Positions 37,066 through 64,000 of a stretch of DNA of 64,000 nucleotides are shown piece by piece. The position numbers and the translations under genes were made by a program. Numbering within the stretch: the stretch's first letter is position 1; each line of letters opens with the position of its first letter. The stretch is from Acidimicrobiia bacterium (GTDB lineage Bacteria; Actinomycetota; Acidimicrobiia; Acidimicrobiales; JANYDT01). The DNA lies in contig JAYSSR010000040.1 of the NCBI GenBank assembly GCA_043720395.1, positions 45,639-109,638 of the forward strand. Direction: 5' to 3'. The notes below the pieces were generated by a model. It did not search any database. It had not been told where the DNA came from and worked only from the letters and a program-made list of their open reading frames with translations.

Positions 37066-37115
37066 GCTCCAAGAAGACACCTCCGCACCGAGATCCCAAG
37101 CGCACCGAAATAGAT

Positions 37116-40668: not shown

Positions 40669-40669
40669 C

Positions 40670-41218: not shown

Positions 41219-41255
41219 TATTGCACCAACTCCAAACCGCCGGCTGGTAGCGAAC

Positions 41256-43105: not shown

Positions 43106-43133
43106 GTCGAACAGTAAAGAGATACGTACGCAT

Positions 43134-43697
43134 ATGGCCCGCTTCACTCCCGCAAATCTCGAACGCGCCCGCGAGCTCGTGGGTCATTACCCGCGTCCGA
43201 AAAGCGCCACGATCCCGCTCTGCCATCTCGCGCAGGAGCAGGACGGTTACCTCAGCGATGCCGCAATGGAGCAGATCGCCGAGCTCGCAGGGTGCACGCC
43301 CGCCGAGGTCTACGGCACGGCGAGCTTTTACGAGATGTTCAAGTTTCACGAGGTAGGCAAATACCTGATCGGCGTCTGCACGAACATCTCCTGCATGCTG
43401 CTCGGAGGCGAGGAATTGCTTGATCACGCAGCCGACTCGCTCGGCGTCCGACCTGGCGCAACAACGTCCGACGGGCTGTTCACGCTTGAGGAGATGGAGT
43501 GCCTCGCTGCGTGCACCGAGGCACCCTGCCTGCAGGTCAACTACCGCTACCACCACAAGGTCACCAGCGCAGACTTTGACGGCCTCGTCGCTGACCTGCG
43601 ACTCGGTAAGCGTTCCGAGATCCCGCTGCATGGGACGCTCTCCAAAGTCCGACAGTCCATCCCGGCCGACCGCCGCGCCAGCCACGACAGCATCTGA
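43134..43697 (+). CDS. nuoE: NADH-quinone oxidoreductase subunit E
   Basis: [2Fe-2S] Cys pattern CTNISCML...ECLAACTEAP. Confidence 0.9.
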   Translation: MARFTPANLERARELVGHYPRPKSATIPLCHLAQEQDGYLSDAAMEQIAELAGCTPAEVYGTASFYEMFKFHEVGKYLIGVCTNISCMLLGGEELLDHAADSLGVRPGATTSDGLFTLEEMECLAACTEAPCLQVNYRYHHKVTSADFDGLVADLRLGKRSEIPLHGTLSKVRQSIPADRRASHDSI

Positions 43698-43708
43698 GGA
43701 ACTAGCTC

Positions 43709-45016: not shown

Positions 45017-45042
45017 TCCCGCCTGACTTCTCCGGAACCACC

Positions 45043-47667: not shown

Positions 47668-48914
47668 TGGGTATGAACGCGCTGCTTTCGGTCGTTCGCC
47701 TTCAGGAGCAGGGAGACCCGCTTCTCACACCGGGAAACAGGCTGTGGATCGCGCCCTTTCTCATCGTGCTCGTCAAAGTGCTCGTTGCTTTCGTGATCTT
47801 GCTCGTCGGCGTGATGCTGATGGTCTGGTTCGAACGCAAGAAGATCTCGGACATGCAGAACCGAATCGGTCCGAACCGGGCAGGACCGTGGGGACTCCTG
47901 CAGACGCTTGCCGACGGAACGAAGCTCTTCTTCAAGGAAGACCTCTTTCCTGACCGGGCCGACAAGGTTGTGTTCCGGATCGCCCCCTATCTGAGCGCGG
48001 TTCCGGCCTTCCTCACGTTCTGTGTCATCCCGCTGGGTGGTCTTATCCACCCGTTCGGAGAGGCCAAATGGGCCACGTATCTCCAGGTCGCCAGCCCGCC
48101 AATGGGTGTGCTCTTCAGCCTTGCGATTTCGTCGATTGCCGTGTACGGAGTGATGCTCGCCGGTTGGTCTAGTGGTTCTAAATATCCGCTGCTCGGTTCC
48201 ATCCGAGCAAGCGCCCAGATGGTCTCGTACGAGGCCGCGATGGGACTCTCGCTGGCCGCAGTAGTGCTCGCCACGGGGACACTTTCCACCCAGGGGATTG
48301 TGAATGCGCAAGCCGGGTTCAGGTGGAACATCTTCTCGACCGGACTCATCCCTTTTGTGGTCTTCGCGATCGCTGGCACCGCTGAATTGAACCGTCCACC
48401 GTTTGACCTTGTCGAGGCGGAATCCGAACTGGTCGGTGGGTTCCATACCGAGTACTCCTCGGCGCGATTCGCATTCTTCTTCCTCGCCGAATTCATGAAC
48501 ACGATCACGATGTCGGCCTTGATCGTCACGCTCTTCCTCGGTGGCCCACGCATCCCGTGGGACATTCCGTTCTTCTCCGCCGTGTCGCCCGTGTGGTTCG
48601 CCATCAAGCTCTACCTCCTTCTCTACGGCTACGTGCTCCTTCGGGCGACGTTGCCGCGATATCGCTACGACCAGCTCATGGACCTCGGCTGGAAACGTCT
48701 CATACCCGTTTCCCTGCTCTGGCTGCTCGTCATTGCGGCTTTCCGTGCTGGCGAGGGCGCAGAGCGCGTGCGCAACGGTGCGCTCACGCTCGCCGGGGCC
48801 GGGTTGGCGGCGGGTCTACTGTTTGCGGCCATGCGCGTCGGCCGTCAAAGTTCGGAGATCGAACGGGCCAACGCACCCAAACCGACCGGACGCGGCGCGG
48901 AAGGTCGGTTCTAA
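47667..48914 (+). CDS. nuoH: NADH-quinone oxidoreductase subunit H
   Basis: ERKKISDMQNRIGPNRAGPWGLLQTLADG, NRPPFDLVEAESELVGGFHTEYS. Confidence 0.9.
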   Translation: MGMNALLSVVRLQEQGDPLLTPGNRLWIAPFLIVLVKVLVAFVILLVGVMLMVWFERKKISDMQNRIGPNRAGPWGLLQTLADGTKLFFKEDLFPDRADKVVFRIAPYLSAVPAFLTFCVIPLGGLIHPFGEAKWATYLQVASPPMGVLFSLAISSIAVYGVMLAGWSSGSKYPLLGSIRASAQMVSYEAAMGLSLAAVVLATGTLSTQGIVNAQAGFRWNIFSTGLIPFVVFAIAGTAELNRPPFDLVEAESELVGGFHTEYSSARFAFFFLAEFMNTITMSALIVTLFLGGPRIPWDIPFFSAVSPVWFAIKLYLLLYGYVLLRATLPRYRYDQLMDLGWKRLIPVSLLWLLVIAAFRAGEGAERVRNGALTLAGAGLAAGLLFAAMRVGRQSSEIERANAPKPTGRGAEGRF

Positions 48915-48968
48915 GATGATCATTTCGAGTCGAGTGCAGCGAGTCCGTTGCCCCCAGCGGGAGCTGTG

Positions 48969-49655
48969 ATGGGGTATCTCGACGGCTTCCGAATCCCGCT
49001 GCAGGAGGCGTTCCGCAAGGACGTCCGGACCGAGGCATACCCCGACACGATCCGCCCGAAGCCGGAGCGCTTCCACGGACGTCACGTGCTGAATCGCTAC
49101 GAAGACGGCATGGAGAAATGCATCGGCTGCGAGCTCTGCGCGGGGGTCTGTCCAGCGAAGTGCATCTACGTTCGCGGTGCGGACAACGATCCGGAAAACC
49201 CGACGTCACCGGGCGAGCGATTCGGTTTCGTGTACGAGATCAACTATCTCCGCTGTATCCACTGCGACCTCTGTGTCGAGGCGTGCCCGACCGAGGCAAT
49301 CACCGAGTCGAAGATCTTCGAGTTCGCGTTCACCAACCGTCGTGACGCGATCTATACGAAGGCCGAGCTTGTCGTCGGTGATGACGGCCTCCCACAGGTG
49401 CAGCCGTGGGAAGACGACCGCGGTGCGACGATGGGATTGAGCGGTTGGATGCGCGCAACCGCACCCGGCGGCGACGCCGACTTCCGTGGTGAAGAGCTGT
49501 GGTCGGGTGATCTGGTCGCCGGTGTCCGTGCCGCTGAAGCAGGCCCACAGGTCGAGGCCGACGAGCGCGCCGCCCGCCTTCACGTAGCCGAGTCAACCGA
49601 CGCTTCTGGGCACGATGGCCAGAGCAATGGTCACGGTCACGGAGGTCATCACTGA
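48969..49655 (+). CDS. nuoI: NADH-quinone oxidoreductase subunit I (with a His/Gly-rich C-terminal tail)
   Basis: CIGCELCAGVCP and CIHCDLCVEACP. The tail ends ...GHDGQSNGHGHGGHH. Confidence 0.9.
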   Translation: MGYLDGFRIPLQEAFRKDVRTEAYPDTIRPKPERFHGRHVLNRYEDGMEKCIGCELCAGVCPAKCIYVRGADNDPENPTSPGERFGFVYEINYLRCIHCDLCVEACPTEAITESKIFEFAFTNRRDAIYTKAELVVGDDGLPQVQPWEDDRGATMGLSGWMRATAPGGDADFRGEELWSGDLVAGVRAAEAGPQVEADERAARLHVAESTDASGHDGQSNGHGHGGHH

Positions 49656-50209
49656 TGGTCGTCGACACCATCGTCTTCGCCGCGGGCGCGGTGCTCGCAA
49701 TTGCCGGGGCGCTCGGGGTCATTGCCGTTCGCAATCCGGTCCATTCCGCGCTCCTGCTCGTGCTCACCCTCTTCGGCGTCGCAATCCTGTTCGTCGCCCA
49801 GCAGGCCCACTTCCTCGCGGCCGTGCAGGTCATCGTGTACGCAGGCGCGATCGTCGTGCTGTTCCTCTTCGTCATCATGCTCCTGGGCGTCGACCGAACA
49901 ACCGATGATGCTCGCAAGGAGACGTTGCGCGGGCAGCGTCCCGCAGCATTCGCCTTGGGCGCGATTGCGCTGGCCGAGCTCATCCTGCTGACCCGGGTGC
50001 ACACGATCGTTGGCCGACCCTCGCTCTCCGGTGCCGCGAACGGACCCGGCACCAACGTCGAAAAGGTCGGCAAGGCCTTGTTTACTCAGTACCTATTTGC
50101 CTTCGAGATCACGTCGGTTTTGTTGGTGATCGCCGTGGTCGGCGCAGTGCTGCTGTCCAGGAAGCCGGAACCGCTCCCCGTTGAATCGGCAACGGGAGGT
50201 CGGCAGTGA
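49655..50209 (+). CDS. nuoJ: NADH-quinone oxidoreductase subunit J
   Basis: Position in the operon, and a hydrophobic 184-aa product with [22 protein letters not shown]. Confidence 0.85.
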
Positions 50210-50535
50210 TTACCGCGGTTGCGGAACCGGGAGTAGCAGGCGGTGCCTATCTCGCAGTGGCTGCAGTGCTCTTCACGATTGGTGCTGTGGGGCTGTTGAT
50301 CCGCCGCAACGTCCTTGTCATGTTCATGTGTGTGGAGCTGATGCTCAACGCGGTGAACCTCACGTTCGTCACGTTCAGCCGCATGCTGAACGACATCGGC
50401 GGCCAGGTAGCCGTGTTCTTCTCGATGGTGGTCGCAGCGGCCGAAGTAGTCGTCGGCCTCGGCATCATCGTGTCCATCTTCCGGCGCAAGAAGGTCGGCG
50501 CCACCGCCGACAGCGCGAACCTCCTGCGCGGGTGA
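50206..50535 (+). CDS. nuoK: NADH-quinone oxidoreductase subunit K
   Basis: 109 aa with [14 protein letters not shown] and [13 protein letters not shown]. Confidence 0.85.
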
Positions 50536-50540
50536 CCTGA

Positions 50541-52502
50541 ATGCTTCAGTACGTCTGGCTCATCCCCGCGCTTCCGCTCGCTGGATTCGTTCTCCTCTTG
50601 TTCGGCGGCAAGCGGATCGGCGAACCGTACGCCGGGTACATCGCCGCCTCCGCGGTCGGCGCGTCCTTCCTCGTGGCGCTCGGCGTGTTCCTCGACCTGG
50701 TCTCGAAGAGTGAGTCCGAGCGGGCATACACAAAGGTGCTGTGGTCGTGGATGCCGTCGCTCGGCGTCAATGCCGCGCTGCTCGTGAATCCACTTTCGAT
50801 CACGATGGTTCTCTTCGTCACGGGCATCGCAACGCTGATTCATGTGTTTGCGATCGGCTACATGCACGGCGACCCCCTGTTTCCGCGGTTCTTCACCTAC
50901 CTGAACCTCTTTGTGTTCTCGATGCTGATGCTCGTGCTGGGCGACAACTTCGTGGTGATGTTTCTCGGCTGGGAGGGCGTTGGCGCTTGCTCGTACCTGC
51001 TCATCTCGTTCTGGTTCGAGCAGGATTCGGCGGCGTCGGCCGGCAAGAAGGCATTTGTCACGAACCGCATCGGCGACTTCGGTCTCATGGGTGCGATGTT
51101 CCTGATCTTCCAGCACACAGGCTCGCTGGAGTATCACGCCGTGTTCCGTCATATCGAGGAGCAAGGCATCTCGCAGGGCACGGCTACCTGGATCTGCCTT
51201 GCGTTGTTCCTCGGGGCTTGTGGCAAGTCGGCCCAGTTGCCGCTGTATGTGTGGCTTCCCGACGCCATGGAAGGTCCGACCCCTGTGTCGGCCCTGATCC
51301 ACGCGGCGACCATGGTGACTGCGGGCGTGTACCTGATGGTGCGCGTCCATCCGTTCCTCGAAGCGGCCGACCCGAACGTCTCGACGCTGATCGCGTGGGT
51401 CGGTGTGCTGACTGCGTTGTTCGCGGCGACGATTGCCACCGCGCAGGACGACATCAAACGTGTGCTCGCCTATTCCACGATCAGCCAGCTCGGCTATATG
51501 TTCCTAGCTGTCGGTGTCGGCGCGAACGTTGCCGCGATCTTTCACATGGTCACGCACGCGTTCTTCAAGGCGCTGATGTTCCTTGGTGCAGGCTCGGTCA
51601 TCCACGGCATGCATCACGAGCAGGACATGAAGCGGATGGGCAACCTTCGCAAATGGATGCCGGTCACCGCGGGGACGTTCCTGATCGGCTGGCTCGCCAT
51701 TGCCGGCGTGCCCCCGTTCGCTGGTTTCTGGTCGAAGGATGACATCCTTCTCGGTGCCTACAACGAGAACAAGGTGCTCTGGTTCCTGGGGCTCGTGACC
51801 GCACTCCTCACGGCGTACTACATGACCAGGCAGATCCGGCTCGTGTTCTTCGGGAACGAGCGGTTCGTTCACTCCACCAACGCGGGATTCGCACCGGCTC
51901 ATGATGAGCACGACGACCACGCGCACGGTCCAATTACCCCACGCGAGTCGCCGGTGTTCATGGTGCTGCCACTCGTGGTGCTGGCCGCACTCTCACTCGG
52001 TGGCGGGCTCATCAACCTGCCGTTCTCCAAGTCCACCGAGTTCCTGGCGAAATGGCTCGAATCCGCTCACATTCCGGGCACCGAAGTCGCTGCCTTTGTC
52101 GGCCACCAGACCCACGTTTCGGGTGGCACGAAGCTCATCCTCGCGGCCATTGCCGTTGCCTGTGGTCTCGTAGGAATCGCGTTCGGCTGGACGAAGTGGG
52201 GGAACGCCGACCCCGCCCGGAGCGCGTCTCTGGAACTACCAGTGCTCAAGCGTGCCTACGGGGTCGACGCGATCTACTCGAAGTTGATCGTGGCGCCAGG
52301 TCAGGCGCTGTCGAACCTTCTCGCCTTCACGGTCGACAGGAAAGGCATCGACGGCGTGGTGAACGGCGTTGGAACCGGCGTTCGCGGCATCGGCGGTCAA
52401 CTTCGGAAGCTTCAAACGGGCTACGTGCGCAACTACGCGCTCGGGTTGCTTGGTGGCCTTGTCGCTTTGCTTGCGTGGGCCTTCTACCGGGGCGGGATGT
52501 GA
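50541..52502 (+). CDS. nuoL: NADH-quinone oxidoreductase subunit L
   Basis: 653 aa, antiporter-like: GWEGVGACSYLLISFW, GKSAQLPLYVWLPDAMEGPTPVSALIHAATMVTAGVY. Confidence 0.9.
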   Translation: MLQYVWLIPALPLAGFVLLLFGGKRIGEPYAGYIAASAVGASFLVALGVFLDLVSKSESERAYTKVLWSWMPSLGVNAALLVNPLSITMVLFVTGIATLIHVFAIGYMHGDPLFPRFFTYLNLFVFSMLMLVLGDNFVVMFLGWEGVGACSYLLISFWFEQDSAASAGKKAFVTNRIGDFGLMGAMFLIFQHTGSLEYHAVFRHIEEQGISQGTATWICLALFLGACGKSAQLPLYVWLPDAMEGPTPVSALIHAATMVTAGVYLMVRVHPFLEAADPNVSTLIAWVGVLTALFAATIATAQDDIKRVLAYSTISQLGYMFLAVGVGANVAAIFHMVTHAFFKALMFLGAGSVIHGMHHEQDMKRMGNLRKWMPVTAGTFLIGWLAIAGVPPFAGFWSKDDILLGAYNENKVLWFLGLVTALLTAYYMTRQIRLVFFGNERFVHSTNAGFAPAHDEHDDHAHGPITPRESPVFMVLPLVVLAALSLGGGLINLPFSKSTEFLAKWLESAHIPGTEVAAFVGHQTHVSGGTKLILAAIAVACGLVGIAFGWTKWGNADPARSASLELPVLKRAYGVDAIYSKLIVAPGQALSNLLAFTVDRKGIDGVVNGVGTGVRGIGGQLRKLQTGYVRNYALGLLGGLVALLAWAFYRGGM

Positions 52503-54145
52503 CCGTGCAGTCGTTGTTGTTCGCCGCGGAAACTCATTCCGCGCACGTGTCGTTCCCATTGCTAAGCGCGCTGATCATTGTGCCGCTCGTCGGCGCGCTG
52601 CTCACCTCGCTCATCCCGAAGACGCGGAGCGAACTCGTTCCGATCGTCGCCATCGGATCTTCGGCGATCACGCTCGCCCTCTCGGTCTGGCTGATGACCA
52701 ACTTCGACAAGTCCGACGCTGGCTACCAGTTCGCGTCGAAGCACGAATGGATCCGCCAGTTCGGCATGTCGTGGAACCTCGGTGTGGACGGCATCTCGCT
52801 TTGGCTCGTTGTGCTTACGGGTTTGCTGTTCCCTATCGCCATGATCGGACCTGACGAGCGAAAGAACGTCAAGTCATACATGGCCTGGCTATTGCTCCTC
52901 GAAGCCGGGGTCATGGGCGTATTTCTCAGCCTCGACTTGCTGCTGTTCTTTGTGTTCTTCGAGGTTGTGCTCGTGCCGATGTACCTCTTGATCGGCGGCT
53001 GGGGCCACGGCAACAAGACCTACGCAGCCACGAAGTTCTTCATCTACACGATGTTCGGTTCCGCGTTGCTGCTCGTCGCCACGATCACGTTGGCCTTCCT
53101 CGCGAAGGGCAAACTCGGTGTTCTGACCTTCGACGTACGTGAACTCGCCAACGCTGGGCTCGGTATCAACACCTCACGCTGGTTGTTCCTTGCGTTCGCC
53201 CTCGCGTTCGCGATCAAGGTACCGCTGTTCCCGCTTCATACCTGGCTGCCCGACGCGCACACCGAGGCGCCGACCGCTGGCTCCGTCATCCTTGCGGGCG
53301 TCATGTTGAAGATGGGCACCTACGGGCTCATCAGGTTCGGGCTGTTCCTGTTCCCGGAGGCGAGCGATTGGTTCGGTCCTGTGATGCTCACACTCGGCGT
53401 GATCGGGATCATCTACGGTGCCCTCACAGCCGTTGTGCAGAAGGACCTCAAACGTCTCGTCGCGTATTCGTCGGTAGCGCACCTTGGCTTCATCGTGATC
53501 GGTACGTACTCGCTGACCAATCAGGGCATCAGCGGCAGCGTCCTCCAGATGATCAACCACGGCCTTTCGACCGGAGCGTTGTTCCTACTCGTCGGCTGGA
53601 TCTACGAGCGGTGCCACACCCGGGAGATCTCTCAGCTGAAGGGTCTCCAGAAGCTCGCTCCGGTGCTCGCCGGCGCGTTCACGATCGTCATGCTCTCCTC
53701 GATCGGTGTGCCGGGGCTCAACGGTTTCGTGGGTGAGTTCATGATCCTGGTCGGCACGTTCCTCACGGCACGCTGGTGGGCGGTCGTTGCAGCTACGGGG
53801 GTCATCCTCGCCGCGTTGTACCTACTGTGGGCGTATCAACGGACGTTTCATGGCGAGCCGGATGAGGAGAACCGGGCGCATATGCACGATCTCAACCTCC
53901 GCGAACGCCTCGCGATTGCACCGCTCCTCGTGTTGATCGTGTTCATTGGCGTGTATCCGAAACCATTCCTCGATCGTATTGATCCGTCGGTGAAGGCTCT
54001 GATCGCTCACATCGAGGAGAAAACCGGTAAACGCGAGCCTGGTGTTGCGAAGAATCAGGGTGCCGTTGCGGCGTCAAATGAGTCACCAAGTGAGCCAGCA
54101 GACGAGTCATCCGATGATTCATCTCATGGGGAGGAGGCGAAGTGA
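52499..54145 (+). CDS. nuoM: NADH-quinone oxidoreductase subunit M
   Basis: KVPLFPLHTWLPDAHTEAPTAGSVILAGVMLKMGTYG. The GTG start overlaps the nuoL stop. Acidic Ser-rich C-terminal tail. Confidence 0.9.
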   Translation: MTVQSLLFAAETHSAHVSFPLLSALIIVPLVGALLTSLIPKTRSELVPIVAIGSSAITLALSVWLMTNFDKSDAGYQFASKHEWIRQFGMSWNLGVDGISLWLVVLTGLLFPIAMIGPDERKNVKSYMAWLLLLEAGVMGVFLSLDLLLFFVFFEVVLVPMYLLIGGWGHGNKTYAATKFFIYTMFGSALLLVATITLAFLAKGKLGVLTFDVRELANAGLGINTSRWLFLAFALAFAIKVPLFPLHTWLPDAHTEAPTAGSVILAGVMLKMGTYGLIRFGLFLFPEASDWFGPVMLTLGVIGIIYGALTAVVQKDLKRLVAYSSVAHLGFIVIGTYSLTNQGISGSVLQMINHGLSTGALFLLVGWIYERCHTREISQLKGLQKLAPVLAGAFTIVMLSSIGVPGLNGFVGEFMILVGTFLTARWWAVVAATGVILAALYLLWAYQRTFHGEPDEENRAHMHDLNLRERLAIAPLLVLIVFIGVYPKPFLDRIDPSVKALIAHIEEKTGKREPGVAKNQGAVAASNESPSEPADESSDDSSHGEEAK

Positions 54146-55710
54146 GTCTGCTGGCCCGAGTTCTTGGGCAGACCACCGATACGGTCGCCGACGTCGCCGC
54201 CGATGCGGCCGACGGCATCGGCACGATCGTCATGCCGGCCATCCAATGGCGTGCGCTCGCCCCGATCAACGTGATGATCGGCGGCGCGCTTGTGTTGCTC
54301 GTCCTGGCGTCACTCGCACGTCACACGAAGTGGATCGGCCATGTGTATGTGTGGGCCACGTGTGCGATCGCCGGGGCGGCTGGCATCTTCGCTCTCGACT
54401 ACGGATCAACGGCCCGCGACGTCACGAAGCCTGCAAGCGCGGTCTCCGATGCCCTGCGAATCGATGGTTTCGCAACCTTTGTCACCGTTCTCATCTGCGT
54501 GTCCGTCATCCTTGCCACGCTGATCGCGGATGGGTTTCTGAAGCGGGAGGGTCTTCATGGCCCGGAAGTCTTCGTACTGACGCTGCTTTCCGCGTCGGGT
54601 GGCATCGTGATGGCGTCGGCCAACGACCTCATCGTGATGTTCCTGGGGCTCGAAATTCTTTCAATCGCCCTGTATGTACTGGCAGGATCGCACCTCCGGC
54701 GTCAGGAATCACAGGAAGCGGCGCTGAAATACTTCGTGCTGGGTGGCTTCTCCTCGGCGGTCTTCCTGTACGGAAGCGCCCTCATCTACGGAGCGACCGG
54801 GTCCACGAACTTCACCGCTATTGCCACCTACCTCGGCGAGAACGTCTTCTTCCAAAACGGATTGCTGGTTACGGGCATCGTGCTGCTGCTCGTCGGTCTG
54901 GGCTTCAAGATCGCCGCGGTGCCGTTCCACATGTGGACACCCGACGTCTACCAAGGATCGCCGTCGCCGGTCACCGGCTTCATGGCGGCGGCGGCCAAGG
55001 CAGCTGGCTTCGCCGGACTGTTGCGAGTGCTGTTCACCGCGCTCGATTCCCGTCGGCTTGATTGGCAGCCGGTCGTCTGGGTACTCGCGATCATCACGAT
55101 GATCGTCGGCGCGATCCTGGCGGCTACCCAGACCGACGTGAAACGGATCATGGCGTACAGCTCGATCAGCCACGCGGGCTTCATCCTCATCGGGCTGCAG
55201 GCGGCCAACGCTGCGGGCCGCTCCGGCGCGCTGTTCTACCTGTTCGCGTACACCTTCATCGTGCTGGGCAGCTTCGCCGTGATCTCGGTCGTTGGCGGCC
55301 GCGGTGACCGGGCACATTCTCTGGACGACTACAAGGGCCTCGGCAAGCGTGCACCCGTGCTCGCGGTGTTGTTCACGCTGTTCCTGCTCGCACAGGCCGG
55401 CATCCCGACCACGAGCGGTTTCATTGCAAAGTTCGGAGTGATCCGTGCTGCGGCTGATGCGCATTCGTACGCGATTGCGATCATCGCGATGTTCGTCTCG
55501 GTCATCGGCGCGTTCGCGTACCTGCGGGTGGTCGTGGCGATGTTCATGTCGGACTCGGATACCGACTCGGACACGGCCTCTGATGCCGGTGCACTTACGG
55601 TCCCGATCGGCACAAAGGTCGCGCTTGCCGTCGCCGTTGCCGCGACGCTGTTCTTCGGCATCGCTCCGCAGCTCCTCGTGAACTTCGCCGACAAGGCCCT
55701 CCTCCGGTAG
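54142..55710 (+). CDS. nuoN: NADH-quinone oxidoreductase subunit N
   Basis: GFKIAAVPFHMWTPDVYQGSPSPVTGFMAAAAK. Confidence 0.9.
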   Translation: MSLLARVLGQTTDTVADVAADAADGIGTIVMPAIQWRALAPINVMIGGALVLLVLASLARHTKWIGHVYVWATCAIAGAAGIFALDYGSTARDVTKPASAVSDALRIDGFATFVTVLICVSVILATLIADGFLKREGLHGPEVFVLTLLSASGGIVMASANDLIVMFLGLEILSIALYVLAGSHLRRQESQEAALKYFVLGGFSSAVFLYGSALIYGATGSTNFTAIATYLGENVFFQNGLLVTGIVLLLVGLGFKIAAVPFHMWTPDVYQGSPSPVTGFMAAAAKAAGFAGLLRVLFTALDSRRLDWQPVVWVLAIITMIVGAILAATQTDVKRIMAYSSISHAGFILIGLQAANAAGRSGALFYLFAYTFIVLGSFAVISVVGGRGDRAHSLDDYKGLGKRAPVLAVLFTLFLLAQAGIPTTSGFIAKFGVIRAAADAHSYAIAIIAMFVSVIGAFAYLRVVVAMFMSDSDTDSDTASDAGALTVPIGTKVALAVAVAATLFFGIAPQLLVNFADKALLR

Positions 55711-55712
55711 GT

Positions 55713-56087
55713 TTGATCTCCGTGTCGCAGTTCCTCCGCTCCTATCTGACCATCGCCTTCCTGGCCGGGGCCGCGTTTCTTCTGGTCGGCGGCACGCTCG
55801 CACTCTCGCGACTGGTACGCCCGAAGCGTCCGAGCGCTGAGAAATTGGTGGCGTACGAGTCCGGCGTCGATCCGGTCGGCACCGGGTGGTCGCAGTCTCA
55901 GATTCGCTATTACATCTTTGCCCTCCTGTTCGTGATGTTCGACGTGGAAGCGGTCTTCCTCTTCCCGTGGGCGCTGCGACTCGAGTACTTCGGTGTGTTC
56001 GGTCTCGTGGAGATGGGTGCCTTCGTTGGCATCCTCCTGCTCGGTCTGCTCTACGCGTGGCGCAAGGGCGTGCTGCGCTGGGTCTGA
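55713..56087 (+). CDS. nuoA: NADH-quinone oxidoreductase subunit A, second divergent copy (nuoA2)
   Basis: [10 protein letters not shown]...[25 protein letters not shown]; 124 aa, starting 2 nt after the nuoN stop. Confidence 0.85.
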
Positions 56088-56133
56088 CCCCGACGCATCA
56101 CACGAAATATCGCCGGAATCTGAGGAACCAGTC

Positions 56134-56649
56134 ATGGGCATTGTCGAAAAGGGTTTGCTGGGAAAGAAGGGCGCAAAACCGCTCACCTGGCTGTTGAACT
56201 ACAGCCGCAAGTACTCCCTCTGGTGTTACCAGTGGGGTCTCGCGTGCTGCGCGATCGAAATGGGGGCTGCGTTCGCATCGCCTCGCTACGACGTGATGCG
56301 CCTCGGGGTCATCCCGTTCCCGGCATCGCCGCGCCAAGCCGACCTCATCGTTGTGTCCGGCACCGTGACCGACAAGATGGCACCGGCGATCAAGCGCCTC
56401 TACGAACAGATGCCCGAACCGAAGTACGTGATCTCCATGGGGAGCTGTGCGAACTGTGGCGGTCCCTACTGGGATTCGTATTCGGTCATGAAGGGTGTCG
56501 ACCAGATCGTGCCCGTCGATGTGTACGTGCCGGGCTGTCCTCCGCGTCCGGAAGCCCTTCTCGAAGGGATCGTGCTCCTCCAAGAGCGCATCCAGAATGA
56601 GGACATGGCCACGAAGTGGCGTGGCGATCCCATTGTTGTCGGGGAGTAA
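56134..56649 (+). CDS. nuoB: NADH-quinone oxidoreductase subunit B, second divergent copy (nuoB2)
   Basis: [68 protein letters not shown]. All four N2-cluster Cys positions are retained. Confidence 0.85.
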
Positions 56650-56777
56650 CCCGGAATAGTCCCGAGTAGCCCGGTTCGGGGACCGATGCGGGTAGCCGGT
56701 CGGTAAGGGCGCGTCGCCCTCGCCCGCGATGCGTCCTGAGCGAATGGCGGGATGACTGTTCGGTACGGTCGGCGGCC

Positions 56778-59700
56778 GTGGAGAAGTCGAAAGCGCCGAG
56801 CGATGCCGACGACGGTATCCATGTAGCGGTCGACGTCGGCAGCTTGCGGCGAACGGCGGTAGTTCGTCCGGGTCGCGATGTGACCTGGGCCGACGTACTT
56901 TCCGCGCTTCGACCGGGTGCGGTGGACGACCTGTCGGTGGACGGCGTCCCCGTCCGTTGCGGCTGGCCGGTGGTCGCGCTGCAGCGTGGCTCGTTGCTCA
57001 CCCTGGGCGTGGCGAAGACACGACTGCTACCCAAGTGCCCGGATTCGGTGCCGCTCGTGGTGCGCGTGCTCACGGGTCCGCTCGCTGGATCGACCATCGG
57101 CCTCCCCGCGGGCACGACCGTATTCGGACGGGAACAGTTGGGCGATCCGACCGTGTCCGTTCGCCACGCCGCATTCCACGTCATCTTCGCACCGGACGGT
57201 GAACCCGTGGTGCACGTCGCCGATCTCGCTTCTACGAATGGCACGACCGTCGAAGGTCTCCCAATCGGACAGGGATGGCATCCGATCGAAGACAACGCCT
57301 CGATGGTGGTCGCATTCGGCCGATGTCTCCTACGTGCGGAAGCCGCGACCGAGGTAACCGCCGCACCACGTCTCCTCGGTCGCGACGGCCGGATACCGGT
57401 GCAGCGATCGCCACGTCTCAACATTGTTGAACGTGCCCAACCGATCGGCGTACCCGCGGCGCAAAAAGCACCCGGGTTGTCGCGCCTGCGCCTCTCGACC
57501 ATGTTCCTCCCGCTGATTCTGGCCGCGGTGATGGTGAAGGTCACTCATCAGCTGACGTTCGCCCTGTTCGCGTTGCTGTCGCCGCTCACCATGTTGGGCA
57601 ACCACCTTGAGGATCGTGGCAAGCGTCGGAGCGTTGGCCGACGCGGTGCGGCGCAGAGCCGTGCAGAGCTGGCGGCCTTCGAGGCCGAAACACGAGACAG
57701 TCGAGCCGTCGAACGGCGTCGCCGCTTCGATCAGTTCCCTGACCTCGCGCGAATCGCCGAGACGTGCGCTATCGCGGACGCTGCATTGTGGGCACGACAA
57801 CCTGACCACTCCGACTCACGAGCCGTCGTGCTCGGCTATGCATCGCAGCGTTGGCAGCCGCCGCTTCGACCGGAACCGACGGGGTCCGAGCCGGATCACA
57901 TCATCGAGGCCATCGAACGGACGAAAGACCTGGGCGAAGTGCCGCTCGTAACCGAGATCGTCGCGGGTCGTTGCATCGGGATCCACGGCGAACGTGAAGC
58001 GGTTCGAGCGATGGCCAGATCGCTCCTGATCCAGGCGGCGGCGCACCGGAGCCCCGCCGATCTCGCCATCTCGGTTGCACCAACCGCGGCGCGAGAGAGG
58101 TGGGCGTGGACGCATTGGCTTCCACACCGCGGAGTTGGCGACGGCGAGCCTGCGGGGGACGACAGAAGCGAGACGACCGATGTACGGGATCAGCTTTTCC
58201 TGCTTGACCTTCTTGACGAACCCAGGCCGGTTCCTCACAGGTTCGATGCCGCCAGATCTCGCTCGGTGATTGCCCTCGCGCTCACGCCCGAACGGCTTCC
58301 GGCGGGTTGTGGGGTAGTCATCCACACCAACGGACAGCTGGCGGAGGTCATCGATCTCACGCATGGGGTGCGGTTCTCCGAGACGGTCGCGTTGGCCGCA
58401 TCGGCTGAGTTCGCCGATGCGGTAGCGAGGTCGCTCGCCCCCTATGCAGATGTCGATCTCGTGGACGACGCCGCGATGATTCCGATTGCGGTGCCGCTCG
58501 TCGGAATGCTCGGTGTTGAAGGCGTTACTCGCGACAACTCGTCGTCCGCTGCAATGCCCGTCCAAGGGCGATGGGAAGCTGCGCGCGGCCAGACCGGACT
58601 CGCTGTCCCCGTCGGTCGTGATGAGAACGGGCTCGTCGTTGTCGATCTGGTCGCCGACGGACCGCACGCCCTCGTGGCCGGAACAACGGGATCCGGGAAG
58701 AGTGAGCTTCTACGCAGCTGGCTGGTCGCTCTGGCCGCAACCTATTCACCGGATGAACTCAACTTCGTGCTGATCGATTACAAGGGAGGAAGTGCGTTCG
58801 CCGCATGCGCAAGCCTTCCCCACACGGCCGGGCTGGTGACGGATCTCGATGGTCACCTCGCGGCGCGGGCGTTGCGGTGTCTCGATGCGGAGATCGTGCG
58901 CCGTGAGCGGATTCTCCGCGATGCCGAAGTGATGGATCTCCCGGCCCTGGTCGTTGCCGGTGGGCACCTCCCCCGGTTGGTCGTCGTGATCGACGAATTC
59001 GCGACGCTTGCCGCCGAGGTCCCGGGATTCGTTGATGCTCTCGTCGGCGTCGCGCAGCGGGGCCGGAGCCTCGGGTTGCACCTCGTGCTGGCGACGCAGC
59101 GTCCATCGGGGGCGGTCAGCGAGAACATTCGCGCGAACACCAACATGCGGATCTCGTTGCGTGTCCAGTCAAGCGCCGATTCGGTGGACGTGATCGGCGA
59201 CCCGGCTGCAGCGCGTCTTCCTCGTCGAGTGCCCGGCCGCGCCCTGATCCGACTCGGGCCGGGAGAGCTGACGACGTTTCAAGCCGCGTACTGCGGCGGT
59301 TCGGCAACCGCAGCGGTGGCGCTTCCGGCGGCGTCCTGGACGGACGAAGATCATCTGTGCACCGATAATCAGCGTGCTGATGATATGCGTGCTGATGATA
59401 TGCGTGCTGATGATATGCGCGCTGAGTTCACCAATGGCGCGACTGCCGCGATGCCGAGAGACGACGACCTCACCAGTCTGGTAAGCGCGATCTGCGCCGC
59501 CGCCATCGACGCGGGGACAACCCCGCCGCATCGACCATGGCCGGACCCGTTGCCTCCCGCGATCGCGCTCCCGCCGACACGGTCCGAGCCTGCGGAGACT
59601 TTGGGCCTTTCGGTCGAGATCGGTGTTGCGGATCTTCCCGACCAGCAGCGATGGGAATCGCTCATCTGGCAACTCGATCGGGGACCGCTTCTCGTGACGG

Positions 59701-61067
59701 GACCTGTCGGCAGTGGCGTCACCTCGACCCTGACGGCGGCGGCGTGTTCAGCAGCGCGAGACCACTCGCCCGATCACCTCCAGCTCCACGTGATCGACTT
59801 CGGTGTCGGAGCGTTGCTGCCCTTACGCGGCCTTCCCCATGCCGGCGACATTCTCGGCCTGGCTGATCGGGAACGACTTCGACGCTGCGCTCGCTGGCTC
59901 GACGGCGAGCTTTCGGTTCGTCGTGCGGCACTGGTCACGGCTGAGCTGTCACGTTGGTCCGACCTTGTCGGGCCGGACACACCGCCGCGAGTCCTGATCG
60001 TGATCGATCAGTATCAAGCACTGCGCTCGGAACTCGACTCACCCGACGGGCATGCGACCTTGGAGACGTTGCACCGCGTCATCGCAGACGGAACCGCGGT
60101 GGGCTTGCACGTCGCCGTGGGCGTTGATCGTCTCCAGGCCGTACCCGCAGCGGTCCTCGGCGCGTTCGTGCAGCGCCTCGTGCTTGGTGCGCGGGAACGC
60201 TTCGAGGTGGCCATGGCCGGCGCGAAGGTCGATGAACTCCCGCCGCCAATTCCGGGACGTGGGATCGACATCCCCGAGGCTCGGGAGGTTCAGATATTCC
60301 AGGTCGAAGGGTTGGTCGAAGTGGTCGCTCACCTGCATGAGACGTGGGGGGCACCGTCCGTCGCTGCCCATCGATCACCCGTGCTTCCCACTGCGGTGGC
60401 CCGTGCCGACCTGGGCATGAGCGGTGTGGCTTTGCCCGTGGGTCTCGGAGATCGCGACGTGGGCACTGTCGGCTTCGATCTCGTGAGTGGCGAAGGTCTG
60501 ATGGTGGTCGGCCCGGGACGTTCCGGCCGCAGTTCGACGCTCGCGCTCCTGGCCAGACAGGTTCGGTCGGCGGACCCAGAACGGGCTCTGATGTTCGTCA
60601 CACCACGGACTTCGACGCCGATGGAGCGGGCGCGAGAAATGCTCGGCGATGCTGTGGCAGTGGTGGCGTCGGATGCAGCCGCCGTTGCAGATGCAGCGCG
60701 TGCGGTTCTCGATCTCGGTCACCGCGTCGCGCTCTTCATCGACGACGCCGAGCACCTGGACGACCCGACGCGGGCTTTGGAGCGACTCCTCCTCGCACGT
60801 CCTCCGGGCCTGTGGGTCTGCGCTGCCGGTCGAGTCGATGCGCTGCGCAGCGCCTACGGACATTGGACCATGCCGATCAGACGGACTCGAACGGGTATTG
60901 CGTTACGCCCGAATCTCGACACGGACGGAGACGTGTTTGCCACCCCGCTCCCACGTCGCGGCGGGCCGTTCCCACCCGGCCGCGGGTGCCTCATCCGCGA
61001 TGGCGACGTCGAGGTTGTGCAGCTCGCACTGTGGAACGAGGTCGCACGAGAGTTAGGGTCGCTCTGA
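56778..61067 (+). CDS. FHA-domain / triple FtsK-SpoIIIE ATPase membrane protein (EssC/EccC-like architecture)
   Basis: 1429 aa. FHA-like GTTVFGRE...VSVRHAAFHV...LASTNGTTVEG, two TM helices around res 245-285, and a canonical P-loop GTTGSGKSE (58680-58703) with VVIDEF and LVLATQRPSG. Two further P-loop-like sites are degenerate: GPVGSGVTS (59700-59726) and GPGRSGRSS (60510-60536). Confidence 0.8.
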   Translation: MEKSKAPSDADDGIHVAVDVGSLRRTAVVRPGRDVTWADVLSALRPGAVDDLSVDGVPVRCGWPVVALQRGSLLTLGVAKTRLLPKCPDSVPLVVRVLTGPLAGSTIGLPAGTTVFGREQLGDPTVSVRHAAFHVIFAPDGEPVVHVADLASTNGTTVEGLPIGQGWHPIEDNASMVVAFGRCLLRAEAATEVTAAPRLLGRDGRIPVQRSPRLNIVERAQPIGVPAAQKAPGLSRLRLSTMFLPLILAAVMVKVTHQLTFALFALLSPLTMLGNHLEDRGKRRSVGRRGAAQSRAELAAFEAETRDSRAVERRRRFDQFPDLARIAETCAIADAALWARQPDHSDSRAVVLGYASQRWQPPLRPEPTGSEPDHIIEAIERTKDLGEVPLVTEIVAGRCIGIHGEREAVRAMARSLLIQAAAHRSPADLAISVAPTAARERWAWTHWLPHRGVGDGEPAGDDRSETTDVRDQLFLLDLLDEPRPVPHRFDAARSRSVIALALTPERLPAGCGVVIHTNGQLAEVIDLTHGVRFSETVALAASAEFADAVARSLAPYADVDLVDDAAMIPIAVPLVGMLGVEGVTRDNSSSAAMPVQGRWEAARGQTGLAVPVGRDENGLVVVDLVADGPHALVAGTTGSGKSELLRSWLVALAATYSPDELNFVLIDYKGGSAFAACASLPHTAGLVTDLDGHLAARALRCLDAEIVRRERILRDAEVMDLPALVVAGGHLPRLVVVIDEFATLAAEVPGFVDALVGVAQRGRSLGLHLVLATQRPSGAVSENIRANTNMRISLRVQSSADSVDVIGDPAAARLPRRVPGRALIRLGPGELTTFQAAYCGGSATAAVALPAASWTDEDHLCTDNQRADDMRADDMRADDMRAEFTNGATAAMPRDDDLTSLVSAICAAAIDAGTTPPHRPWPDPLPPAIALPPTRSEPAETLGLSVEIGVADLPDQQRWESLIWQLDRGPLLVTGPVGSGVTSTLTAAACSAARDHSPDHLQLHVIDFGVGALLPLRGLPHAGDILGLADRERLRRCARWLDGELSVRRAALVTAELSRWSDLVGPDTPPRVLIVIDQYQALRSELDSPDGHATLETLHRVIADGTAVGLHVAVGVDRLQAVPAAVLGAFVQRLVLGARERFEVAMAGAKVDELPPPIPGRGIDIPEAREVQIFQVEGLVEVVAHLHETWGAPSVAAHRSPVLPTAVARADLGMSGVALPVGLGDRDVGTVGFDLVSGEGLMVVGPGRSGRSSTLALLARQVRSADPERALMFVTPRTSTPMERAREMLGDAVAVVASDAAAVADAARAVLDLGHRVALFIDDAEHLDDPTRALERLLLARPPGLWVCAAGRVDALRSAYGHWTMPIRRTRTGIALRPNLDTDGDVFATPLPRRGGPFPPGRGCLIRDGDVEVVQLALWNEVARELGSL
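59373..59426 (+). repeat. In-frame 15-bp tandem repeat (about 3.5 copies) inside the FtsK-like gene
   Basis: CGTGCTGATGATATG x3 (59373-59417), then the degenerate CGCGCTGAG. It encodes RADDM-RADDM-RADDM-RAE. Confidence 0.9.
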
Positions 61068-61084
61068 AACGAGGAAGGGACGAC

Positions 61085-61972
61085 ATGGGCAGGTTGGATG
61101 GACGAGTAGCGATCGTGACCGGCGCGAGCCGAGGGCTGGGCCGAGCGATGGCACTGGGTCTCGCGGCCGAAGGAGCGTCCGTTGCCGTGGTCGCACGGAC
61201 GGAACAGGTGTGGGACGAGCGACTGCCCGGAACGATTGGTCAGACCGTCACCGATATCGAGGCGGCGGGCGGTCGAGCGGTTGCGATTCGCGCCGATCTC
61301 CTCCAGCCGGAAGATCACGTCCGATTGGTCAACGAGGCGCGAGCCGCCCTCGGCCCGATCACGATCCTTGTCAACAACGCGGCGTTCACGGCACCAGGGC
61401 GTCCGCCGAAACCCGGAGCGACTCCAGTAGCGGCGCGCAAAAAGGTCGCCGCCGAAACCGGTCCGGCAACCGCGAAGGCAGAGTGGCCGAACTTCGCCAC
61501 GACGCCGCTCGGAGCGTTTCGTCGCCACTTCGAGATCGGCGTCTTTGCGGTTTACGAGCTGATGCAGCTCGTGGTTCCGGACATGGCAGCGGCGGGTGGT
61601 GGAGCGATCGTGAACGTGACCTCGGGAGCGTCGAGGATGCCAGGCGACGGTCCGTATCCTGACCGGTCCAGCGGGATGCTTCCGGGCTACGGCGGATCGA
61701 AGGCGGCGCTCGAACACCTCACCCAGTGTGCCGCGTTCGACCTCGCGGGGATGAACATTGCCGTGAACTCCCTGTCTCCGTCCAAGGCGATCCTGACGCC
61801 AGGCGTTGCCTTCTACGCACGGGAGTTCGATGATCTCGGTTCGGAGACCGATTTCGCCGAGGCCGCCGTGCGCCTGTGTCTGGTCGACCCGACCACTGTC
61901 ACCGGCCGCACGATCGGGCACCTCGACGTCCTCGACGGAACCTACCGCGCGTACGGTCATAACCCCAGGTGA
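61085..61972 (+). CDS. Short-chain dehydrogenase/reductase (SDR) with a low-complexity insertion
   Basis: TGASRGLG, NNAA and YGGSKAA (YxxxK). An insertion of about 35 aa, GRPPKPGATPVAARKKVAAETGPATAKAEWPNFATT, follows NNAA. The ATG at 61085 is internal to the 542-aa ORF. Confidence 0.8.
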   Translation: MGRLDGRVAIVTGASRGLGRAMALGLAAEGASVAVVARTEQVWDERLPGTIGQTVTDIEAAGGRAVAIRADLLQPEDHVRLVNEARAALGPITILVNNAAFTAPGRPPKPGATPVAARKKVAAETGPATAKAEWPNFATTPLGAFRRHFEIGVFAVYELMQLVVPDMAAAGGGAIVNVTSGASRMPGDGPYPDRSSGMLPGYGGSKAALEHLTQCAAFDLAGMNIAVNSLSPSKAILTPGVAFYAREFDDLGSETDFAEAAVRLCLVDPTTVTGRTIGHLDVLDGTYRAYGHNPR

Positions 61973-61992
61973 GGTACCCGTAGCTTGGTGCG

Positions 61993-63066
61993 ATGGTCGT
62001 GCGCCCCAACACCCCGCTGGTTCAGGCGCTCAAGATGGTCGCCCCCGGTTCGACGCTGCGCGACGGTCTCGACCGCATCCTCCAGGCCAAGATGGGTGCG
62101 CTCATCGTGGTCGGCGATGGACCGGACGTCTTGGCGGTCTGCTCGGGCGGGTTTCTTCTCGACGCCGAATACTCGCCGCAGCGTTTGAGCGAGCTGGCCA
62201 AGATGGACGGCGCGATCATCCTCGCGTCCGACGCAAGCCGAATCGCTCGGGCGAACGTGCACCTGCTGCCCGATCCGGGCGTACCGACCACGGAGACCGG
62301 GACGCGTCATCGCACCGCAGAACGCGTCGCACGTTCGATCGACGTGCCGGTGATCTCGGTGTCGGAAGAGATGTCGATCATCGCCGTTTACCGGCAGGCC
62401 GACAAGGTCCAGCTCCAAGGCATCGGCGAGGCGCTCGATCGTGCCGGTCAGGCGATTCAGACGCTGGAGCGGTATCGGTCGCGACTCGACCAGGTCCTCG
62501 CACTGCTCTCGCTCCACGAGATCGACGGCACCGTGACCGTACGTGACGTCGCCGTTGCTTACCAGCGCTTGGAAATGGTGCACCGGGTGAGCGAGGAACT
62601 CGGCGGCCAGCTGGTGTCACTGGGTGACGAAGGCCGTCACGTCGAACTGCAACTCGACGAATTGCTCGCCGGGCTCGACCGCGAACGGACCCTCCTCTGT
62701 CGCGACTATGCGATCGACCCGGACGTTTCTGCTCGGTCGCTCGCGAAGCTCGACTCCCACGAGTTGCTCGATCTTGGCCAGGTCGGTCGTGTGCTCGGTC
62801 TCGCCGACCCATCCGGCACTGGCTCGGGCGCAGCGGGTTCGAGGTTGGTGCCGAAGGGCTACCGCTTGCTCTCGCGAGTCCCACGCCTCTCCGATCCGGT
62901 GATCGCCCACGTTGCGACGCACTTCGCCGGGATACCCGATCTGCTGATGGCTACCGTCGCGGCGCTGACTCGCGTGGACGGCGTCGGCGAGGTTCGAGCC
63001 AGGGCAATCCGCGACGGTCTCAGCAGGGCGTCGGAAACGATCCTCAGCGAGGCTCGCGGCCGCTAA
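61993..63066 (+). CDS. disA: DNA integrity scanning protein DisA (diadenylate cyclase)
   Basis: DAC-domain GALIVVG, MDGAIIL and TGTRHRTAERV, with a C-terminal HhH-like region (VDGVGEVRARAIRDGL). Confidence 0.9.
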   Translation: MVVRPNTPLVQALKMVAPGSTLRDGLDRILQAKMGALIVVGDGPDVLAVCSGGFLLDAEYSPQRLSELAKMDGAIILASDASRIARANVHLLPDPGVPTTETGTRHRTAERVARSIDVPVISVSEEMSIIAVYRQADKVQLQGIGEALDRAGQAIQTLERYRSRLDQVLALLSLHEIDGTVTVRDVAVAYQRLEMVHRVSEELGGQLVSLGDEGRHVELQLDELLAGLDRERTLLCRDYAIDPDVSARSLAKLDSHELLDLGQVGRVLGLADPSGTGSGAAGSRLVPKGYRLLSRVPRLSDPVIAHVATHFAGIPDLLMATVAALTRVDGVGEVRARAIRDGLSRASETILSEARGR

Positions 63067-63072
63067 AACGTG

Positions 63073-63732
63073 TCAGGTCGAGCGGTTGGCGAGACGCTTG
63101 CGGTCAACGATGCGGTAGGTACGATCGCGCTGCTCAAGCCAGCCGAGGCGGATGAACGCAGCGATCGCCTTGTTGACGCGCTCACGAGAGGCACCGATCA
63201 TCGAGGCCAATTCTTCCTGGGTGATCGGAAGGCTGAACTCGTCGGAGGTGCCCGCGATCTCCAGGAGACGTTTCGCGGTGCGTCCGGTCACGTCGAGGAA
63301 GACCGAGTCGGCGATCGCTTCGTTGGCGGAACGGAGGCGATCCATGAGCAGCGTGATGACGCTCCACAGGGCCTTCGCGTGCGTCTCGAAATGCGCGCGA
63401 ACGGGTTCGAACGGAACCCGGACGACCTCGCTCGACTCCAGCGCGCGGGCTCCAGCGGAGCGTCCCTTGCCGTCAAACATCGCCATCTCGCCGAACAGAT
63501 CGCCCGGGTCCATGAGGTCGAGCACGGACTCGCGGCCGTCGACCGAGCGGTTCCCGATTGCAATGCGCCCGGACACCGTGATGTACAGCGCGTCGGCCGG
63601 ATCCGTCTCGGCGAACACCATGTCGCCACGCTGGTACGACTGACGCGTCGCTCTAGAGGCGACCTCCACGAGCGCTTCGTCGGTAAAGCCGGAGAAGAAT
63701 GGGATGCTTCGAAGGAACTCCGCGGTGACCAC
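63073..63732 (-). CDS. crp: Crp/Fnr-family cyclic-nucleotide-binding transcriptional regulator
   Basis: cNMP domain DLFGEMAMFDGKGRSAGARALE and HTH TQEELASMIGASRERVNKAIAAF. The GTG start at 63732 is inferred. Confidence 0.85.
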   Translation of the reverse strand: MVTAEFLRSIPFFSGFTDEALVEVASRATRQSYQRGDMVFAETDPADALYITVSGRIAIGNRSVDGRESVLDLMDPGDLFGEMAMFDGKGRSAGARALESSEVVRVPFEPVRAHFETHAKALWSVITLLMDRLRSANEAIADSVFLDVTGRTAKRLLEIAGTSDEFSLPITQEELASMIGASRERVNKAIAAFIRLGWLEQRDRTYRIVDRKRLANRST

Positions 63733-63903
63733 GGCGGTGAGCCTATGCGCCTGTGACGTCCGTCGCTCGTCAGGGTCTCGGGCTGCCCTGGAACGGTTGC
63801 AAACAAAAGAAACCCGACGAAAACCGAGCCCGGCCAGGCGTTTGCTACAATCGTAGGTCGCAATTTCCGATTCAGTTTGGGTCGGTCGCTTCTGAGGAGC
63901 CTC

Positions 63904-64000
63904 ATGCCGTTCGACGTCGGTGACAAGGTCGTGTACCCCCATCATGGGGCCGCGATCATCGAGAAGCGTGAGATGAAGAAGTTCAACGACGAGGAGAAGG
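63904..64000 (+). CDS. carD: CarD-family RNA polymerase-binding transcriptional regulator (5' end only; runs off the window)
   Basis: Manual translation MPFDVGDKVVYPHHGAAIIEKREMKKFNDEEK matches the CarD N-terminal signature (VGD.VVYPHHGAA). GAGGAG lies 5 nt upstream and TACAAT lies at 63846-63851. Confidence 0.8.
   Translation, partial: MPFDVGDKVVYPHHGAAIIEKREMKKFNDEEK

Follow-up and report, generated by a model that had tools for sequence, protein, structure and literature searches.

Why would a bacterium carry a second nuoA and a second nuoB immediately behind an already complete operon for complex I? This question is raised by a stretch of 64,000 nucleotides from contig JAYSSR010000040.1 of an Acidimicrobiia bacterium (the window), in which the 14-gene operon nuoA1–nuoN1 (nuo1) is followed by a divergent pair of genes, nuoA2 and nuoB2, and then by a gene that does not belong to any nuo operon. 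Its two genes are evidently orthologs of the A and B genes that open nuo2, a second operon of Acidimicrobiia that lacks nuoE, nuoF, and nuoG. The most likely explanation, which we hold to be fairly probable, is that nuo2 has been split and that its other genes (C2–N2) lie elsewhere in the same genome. The features of the window that bear on this are as follows.

40189–55710, + strand: nuo1, complete with the 14 genes nuoA1–nuoN1, including nuoE, nuoF, and nuoG for the NADH-oxidizing module
41783–43105: nuoD1 (the D1 of the window), within nuo1
55708–55724, + strand: junction of nuoN1 and nuoA2, from the stop codon TAG to the start codon TTG 55713 or GTG 55722, with a gap of 2–11 nt
55722–56087, + strand: nuoA2, membrane subunit of the NuoA/ND3 family, 121 amino acids from GTG 55722 or 124 amino acids from TTG 55713
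56120–56133, + strand: putative ribosome-binding site GAGGA, read from the sequence, in the 46-nt spacer between nuoA2 and nuoB2 and 5' of the nuoB2 ATG
56134–56649, + strand: nuoB2, subunit of the NuoB/NDUFS7 family, 171 amino acids, with an ATG start preceded by the GAGGA site
56650–56777, no strand: breakpoint region, where homology to all relatives stops within 2 nt of the nuoB2 stop codon
56778–61067, + strand: EssC/EccC-like protein (not nuo) with an FHA domain and a triple FtsK/SpoIIIE ATPase (TIGR03928, E = 8e-134, below the curated cutoff; PF01580; PF00498)

The first-pass annotation of this stretch had described a second NuoA of 124 amino acids beginning 2 nt after the nuoN stop codon, and then a second NuoB with all the cysteines of the N2 cluster. 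Both genes stand. With TTG 55713 as the start of nuoA2, the gap after the TAG stop of nuoN1 (55708–55710) is indeed 2 nt; the start that is conserved among the relatives is GTG 55722, which gives a gap of 11 nt and a protein of 121 amino acids. NuoA2 matches PF00507 at 121.8 bits (the cutoff is 23.3), across profile positions 4–99 of 99. Its score against the NCBIfam equivalog NF005839 is 130 bits, under the cutoff of 163, which is consistent with a divergent subfamily. NuoB2 is well recognized by TIGR01957 (216.8 bits; cutoff 142.7), NF005012 (224.7 bits; cutoff 116), and PF01058 (106.8 bits; cutoff 27). We also considered a 218-amino-acid reading frame that starts with a GTG at 55993 as nuoB2, but it is not likely to be the gene, and ATG 56134 with its GAGGA site is preferred. 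All four cysteines that bind the N2 [4Fe-4S] cluster are kept in NuoB2: C38 and C39 (in LACCAIEM), C104 (in GSCANCGG), and C134 (in PGCPP). These motifs align with CCAVEM, SCANGGG, and PGCPP of the mitochondrial NDUFS7, and the cysteines are invariant across the aligned B2 orthologs.

The completeness of nuo1, as first described, was also borne out: subunits A, B, C, D, E, F, G, H, I, J, K, L, and N were found by matches to NCBIfam and Pfam, and M was found by tblastn. The same is true of the view that the two copies of A and B are not recent duplicates. The identity is 55% for B1 versus B2 and 36% for A1 versus A2, which implies an old duplication, so we consider A1/A2 and B1/B2 to be old paralogs. 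The types that had been assigned to the two NuoB proteins hold in part. NuoB1 was said to have an actinobacterial signature, and its best solved relative is indeed from M. smegmatis (250 bits), but Thermus (236 bits) shares the signature, so it is not specific to actinobacteria. NuoB2 was said to resemble the proteobacterial type. Against solved structures, it scores best with mitochondrial NDUFS7 (190 bits), Paracoccus (176 bits), and E. coli (175 bits), but the margin over M. smegmatis (166 bits) and Thermus (159 bits) is modest, so these scores suggest a modest lean to the mitochondrial/proteobacterial type.

Because the gap between nuoN1 and nuoA2 is just 2–11 nt, we infer that nuoA2-nuoB2 are co-transcribed with nuo1, probably as the tail of its transcript. 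We found no promoter-like site within 55400–57400. A tight joint between N1 and A2 (an overlap or 44 nt) is also present in the sister loci L104, L105, and L106, and in other clades the gap ranges from about 90 nt to 8 kb.

Where do nuoA2 and nuoB2 come from? When we searched proteins with B2, hundreds of clusters matched at 77–96% identity, and the named ones were from Acidimicrobiia (Ilumatobacteraceae, acAcidi, and Ca. Poriferisodalis). In a 4.4-Mb chromosome of Poriferisodalis, the ortholog of B2 is the second gene of an operon with the order A B C D H I J K L M N, without E, F, or G. To see how general this is, we scanned one genome per GTDB species, which gave 80 loci, all of them from metagenome-assembled genomes (MAGs) of Acidimicrobiia, and we annotated these loci by tblastn with the nuo1 proteins of the window and the nuo2 proteins of Poriferisodalis. 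NuoB2 from the window is 72–96% identical to the B2 of these 80 species representatives and of metagenome contigs, and the families with orthologs include Ilumatobacteraceae, Microthrixaceae, Poriferisodalaceae, and Aldehydirespiratoraceae. All of the surveyed species representatives contained nuo2. Among the loci with at least 1.5 kb of downstream sequence, nuoC2 lies directly 3' of nuoB2 in 71/71, and all of the loci with at least 9.3 kb downstream (57/57) have the full set of C2–N2. The layout that had drawn attention to the window, with A2B2 behind nuoN, turned out to be widespread: nuoN1 of the 14-gene operon is at most 10 kb upstream of nuo2 in 26 of the 50 loci with a full upstream flank. 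An 11-gene nuo2 without E, F, and G, in tandem after nuo1, is thus common in Acidimicrobiia.

Two comparisons place the window's pair in this family. The nearest loci with a full nuo2 have A2 proteins that are 84–87% identical to the window's and B2 proteins that are 89–92% identical. In a neighbor-joining tree of A2+B2, the window's pair is nested among the others and is far from A1B1. The G+C content of A2B2 and its G+C at third codon positions (GC3) equal those of nuo1.

The survey turned up some oddities. Four MAG contigs titled Bifidobacterium (L036, L046, L051, and L058; B. breve or Bifidobacterium sp.) carry nuo2 of the Acidimicrobiia type, and three of them have nuo1 genes upstream; the taxonomy of these records looks wrong. 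In L104, a gene with the Methyltransf_28 domain (PF02636) lies directly after nuoN2, at 13155–13816. This family includes NDUFAF7/MidA, a factor for the assembly of mitochondrial complex I that methylates the homolog of NuoD. Four proteins of 288–297 amino acids (P0018, P0019, P0023, and P0081) appeared to be fusions of NuoA and NuoB and contained both Pfam domains. We rejected these: the last helix of A2 is out of frame before B2, which looks like the result of indel errors.

If the pair belongs to nuo2, what became of the other nine genes? Using tblastn with the C2, D2, and H2–N2 proteins of L003, L005, and L008, we matched only the nuo1 genes in the 64-kb window. We found no remnants of C2 in the window, nor of the WXG or CHAP genes that relatives have next to it (see below). 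The alignments (blastn) of the window to L001, L002, and L091 stop at 56650–56651. At the junction itself, we found no terminator consensus (the z-score for folding was only -1.86), no repeats, and no tRNA. The G+C content rises across it from 0.62 to 0.65–0.67. Behind the gene for the EssC-like ATPase come an SDR gene, disA, crp (on the minus strand; a Crp-family regulator), and the start of carD. Comparing the sequence after nuoN2 in the relatives to the window with tblastx gave only noise. In a search for homologs of DisA, the next DisA was 64% identical, and none was on a contig with nuo2. The window is the only locus in which nuo2 stops after B2, as compared to 71 relatives with enough downstream sequence. 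A Logan contig (L010) independently confirms positions 59390–64000 of the window, a stretch that SRR23617227 holds at 100% identity; no independent contig spans 56650–59390.

The closest relatives also show changes at this site. The A2+B2 tree puts the window and L001 together, as the sister group of a clade of L009, L104, L105, and L106. (L008 has the same B2 as L009. L107 and L108, which lack A2, were left out of the tree and were placed by the identity of B2.) Proteins of the sister clade are 84–87% (A2) and 89–91% (B2) identical to the window's. At the joint between B2 and C2, the sister clade has a gene for a small protein that weakly matches WXG100 (E = 5e-5 and 3e-3 in Pfam, below threshold) and a gene for a protein with a CHAP domain, and then C2–N2 continue normally. 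L107 and L108, with B2 proteins 92% identical to the window's, have the WXG100-like gene alone between B2 and C2. The inserts between B2 and C2 are at L008:795–2233, L104:1562–2991, L105:6742–7900, L106:1604–2837, and L107:543–956. Because the sister clade carries such genes there, the joint had already been loosened, by cargo of the type VII secretion type, before the window was rearranged. We also note that genes of this type recur at the joint: WXG100-like genes in the sister clade and the EssC/EccC-like ATPase in the window.

L001 and L002 are contigs from JGI, from different samples, and both have a gene for an AAA_21/AAA_15 ATPase after nuoB2, with neither the EssC-like gene nor C2.

L001:1660–2685 and L002:1668–2414: AAA_21/AAA_15 ATPase of an AbiEii/OLD-like family, after nuoB2

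This ATPase has no homolog in the window or in any other locus that we examined. We regard the position behind nuoB2 as a hotspot of gene turnover.

Other loci show nuo2 in pieces. L109, a 2-kb contig from JGI, contains a divergently transcribed gene for a membrane protein and, beyond a spacer of 128 nt, C2-D2; A2B2 is missing upstream of them. The D2 of L109 is 79–82% identical to those of the sister clades. (L107 and L109 came from a tree of C2 that we made to pick candidates for the C2 of the window's lineage.) In L005, nuo2 breaks after D2 instead: L005:8111–16867 has A2, B2, C2, and D2, then a PIN/antitoxin pair, Cas_GSU0053, and Cas_GSU0054, with no H2–N2. We also scanned metagenomes with the C2 of L008, and found only relatives at 53% identity or less; even L008 itself was missed, so the samples that matter here are not in this collection. 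A separate case is L091:604–1604, whose B2 is 96% identical to the window's and whose A2 is just 68% identical, below the A2 of more distant relatives (84–87%). This pair may be a recombinant mosaic.

Is the pair in use? L001 and L002 are 90.5% identical to the window at the DNA level (positions 55401–56651), and they encode identical A2 and B2 proteins. We counted substitutions between the window and L001 by the method of Nei and Gojobori. In the 171 codons of B2, there are 39 synonymous differences and 0 non-synonymous differences, with dS = 0.44. In A2, there are 25 synonymous differences and about 1 non-synonymous difference, which is the difference in the start codon; the aligned proteins are 100% identical. 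For the tail of nuoN, dN/dS is 0.09, and for B2 versus more distant relatives, dN/dS is 0.04–0.06. Nor is there any acceleration in the window's A2 or B2 relative to sister lineages with a whole nuo2: the identity of B2 to the outgroups is 86.5% for the window and 87.6–88.9% for the sisters, and for A2, it is 70.3% for the window and 67–72% for the sisters. Thus, nuoA2-nuoB2 is intact and under strong purifying selection, and is not decaying; neither a relaxation nor a redirection of selection is apparent. The first-pass annotation had suggested that the pair could be a remnant, and had mentioned decay with an elevated dN/dS; in the sense of decay, the term does not fit these genes.

We propose that an ancestral nuo2 (A B C D H I J K L M N) lay directly downstream of nuo1 and that, in the lineage of the window, it was cut exactly after nuoB2. 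A2B2 would have stayed joined to the end of nuo1 as functional genes and would be translated from the nuo1 transcript, and the two proteins would assemble with C2–N2 made from another locus. B2 would carry the terminal [4Fe-4S] cluster, N2, and would pass electrons to the quinone site that it builds together with D2 and H2; at the interface of this site, A2 would serve as the small membrane subunit. These presumed roles of A2 and B2 are assigned by homology, given what is established about the structure of complex I and how B2 and D2 align with solved complexes. Without the NADH-oxidizing module, the nuo2 complex would obtain its electrons from another donor, and ferredoxin and F420H2 are published suggestions.

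We favor a split operon because nuo2 is in every species representative that we surveyed, because A2B2 is under very strong constraint, because the sister clade has the coupling of N1 and A2 together with a full nuo2, and because split nuo2 loci do occur among the relatives (L109 and L005). The first-pass annotation had recognized that a second locus elsewhere, without A and B, would make for a simple split operon, and the C2-first locus of a related lineage (L109) is of that kind. Several points weigh against a split operon. The presence of C2–N2 elsewhere in this genome is something that we infer. The G+C content of L109 (0.69) is above that of the window (0.645), which makes a different organism its probable source. 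A2B2 was parted from C2 in 0/71 of the species representatives with enough downstream sequence (80 were surveyed), so there is no documented precedent in a complete genome. Also, the L001 contig ends 1.45 kb past B2 and its C2 may still be nearby, in which case part of the constraint that we measured comes from a lineage with an intact operon.

The D subunit has a further bearing on what the pair could work with. In the D subunits of nuo2, a tryptophan (in RIDWLG) aligns with Tyr87 of Nqo4 from Thermus in 91/91 cases (for example, L104:3813–5030). D1 of the window keeps the tyrosine (RMDYL), and the equivalent of His38 is kept in both D1 and D2. Tyr87 is the tyrosine that binds the quinone head group. 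The nuo2 complex may have an altered site for quinone or another acceptor.

Another way to account for the locus, and the first idea of the first-pass annotation, is that C2–N2 were lost and that NuoA2 and NuoB2 replace A1 and B1 in the nuo1 complex, forming an isoform with a different environment for N2 and the quinone site. The pair would be made together with nuo1, as it is just 2–11 nt from nuoN1; the strong purifying selection means that it is used for something; and C2–N2 are absent from the 64-kb window. However, the tight joint between N1 and A2 is also present in sisters that keep the whole nuo2, so it does not point to a new role. Compared with the sisters, A2 and B2 of the window have not gone through a burst of substitutions, nor have their residues clearly become more like those of B1. 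Furthermore, D2 is only about 40% identical to D1 and differs at the position of Tyr87, as described above. Because the partners of B2 differ so strongly from the nuo1 proteins, A and B are not expected to exchange freely. And if A2B2 must be co-expressed with A1B1, then there is no way to switch between isoforms. We consider this explanation to be unlikely. If it were true, two subunits would have been salvaged from a dismantled paralogous complex, and this is the only one of the readings that would be truly surprising. It's also conceivable that C2–N2 were deleted very recently and that A2B2 are undamaged but functionless passengers on the nuo1 transcript. The window does stand alone, among 71 relatives with enough downstream sequence, in having no C2 after B2, and the region after B2 differs even from that of L001 (90.5% identical), which points to recent turnover at the site. 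But at a dS of 0.3–0.4, B2 has 0 non-synonymous changes and A2 has essentially none, when neutrality would predict about 60 on one branch. Because such changes are all but absent, the orphaning would need to postdate the divergence of the strains by far. Also, nuo2 is in every surveyed species representative, so it does not seem to be readily dispensable. We find a recent orphaning quite improbable.

The break could instead be an artifact of assembly: if the join between the stop codon of nuoB2 and the EssC-like gene were chimeric, then the real nuo2 would continue, possibly after an inserted gene like that of the sister clade. This would fit with the lack of an independent contig across 56650–59390 (L010 covers 59390–64000), with the divergence of L001 and L002 from the window at exactly this point, which is typical of misjoins in metagenomes, and with the rise in G+C from 0.62 to 0.65–0.67. 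On the other hand, the junction has no repeat that would explain a misjoin, and the step in G+C is no larger than expected between genes for membrane proteins and genes for soluble proteins. C2 is also missing right after B2 in L001 and L002, which were sampled and assembled separately; this argues for a real structural change in this lineage. We view an artifact as very unlikely, and nothing specific points to one. Finally, the first-pass annotation had raised the possibility of a remnant of a second, horizontally acquired nuo operon. The pair does belong to a second nuo operon, but the operon is found across the class and usually in tandem with nuo1, which does not fit with a recent acquisition. 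The cysteine motif of B2 and its best scores against PDB do lean to the mitochondrial, Paracoccus, and E. coli proteins over those of M. smegmatis and Thermus, as would be expected for a proteobacterial-type operon. Yet the orthologs of B2 (72–96% identity) are from Acidimicrobiia throughout, always in the same operon; the window's A2B2 nest in the A2+B2 tree of Acidimicrobiia; and the G+C and GC3 are those of nuo1. We rejected a recent transfer from proteobacteria, which has hardly any probability left given the phylogeny and the composition: nuo2 is an old resident of the class.

How does the split nuo2 that we favor compare to known systems? Ca. Actinomarinales have two adjacent nuo clusters, one of which lacks E, F, and G, and F420 was suggested as the donor (Lopez-Perez et al. 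2020, PMC7771536). A2 and B2 are orthologous to the first two genes of that second cluster, and are likewise directly downstream of nuoN; unlike in Ca. Actinomarinales, the window has only A and B at this locus, and the gene for the EssC-like ATPase is next. More generally, 11-subunit enzymes without E, F, and G are known (PMC11238625, which cites Moparthi and Hagerhall 2011), and ferredoxin or another partner has been proposed as their electron donor. The nuo2 of the relatives has the same gene set and order as nuoABCDHIJKLMN from Desulfitobacterium hafniense and other Firmicutes (PMC11238625), and it also lacks the N-module. In contrast to those enzymes, the nuo2 of Acidimicrobiia occurs alongside a full 14-subunit operon and is linked to it.

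Fpo, the F420H2 dehydrogenase of Methanosarcina, is also a homolog of complex I that lacks NuoEFG, and it was suggested to be a functional analog of the second cluster of actinobacteria (PMC7771536). However, no gene for FpoF or FpoO was seen in the related loci that we inspected. For B2, models of Fpo were absent from the NCBIfam matches; these were models of NuoB or of subunit B of NADH dehydrogenase, except for two weak hits, far below the cutoff, to FrhG and VhuG (small subunits of F420-related hydrogenases). The last comparison is to pairs of complex I isozymes (Spero et al.), where there are also two divergent sets of core subunits per organism and where mixed assemblies are possible. 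Those pairs are encoded by whole or nearly whole operons, whereas just the A/B pair is visible here.

In the upstream part of the window, NuoA1 (40189–40668) has 159 amino acids, including a hydrophilic tail of about 40 residues past the match to the NuoA profile, which ends at residue 117; the gene extends right to the start of nuoB1. The region upstream of nuoA1 (36792–40182) encodes a Rieske-domain protein (36792–37988), a cytochrome c with two hits to c-type domains (37985–39310), and an unannotated protein of 291 amino acids. So, genes for a bc-type complex cluster with nuo in the window.

The significance of the detached nuoA2-nuoB2 is modest. The tandem was already published; it is the gene arrangement that is unusual. 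What looks like an extra A/B pair is an annotation trap: the two genes are the start of an already known, class-wide second operon related to complex I, cut off from the rest. The tandem of nuo1 and nuo2 is common in Acidimicrobiia (26/50), and the replacement of Tyr87 by tryptophan in all 91 of the D2 proteins is worth a specialist's look. The locus is also a natural experiment, in which two core subunits are very strongly constrained while they are away from their nine partners and chained to the operon of another complex. If the partners are elsewhere in the genome, then the genes for A and B can be expressed from the transcript of another operon. If the partners are truly absent, then this would be evidence for the exchange of subunits between paralogous complex I enzymes, which would bear on the assembly of the complex and on its quinone site.

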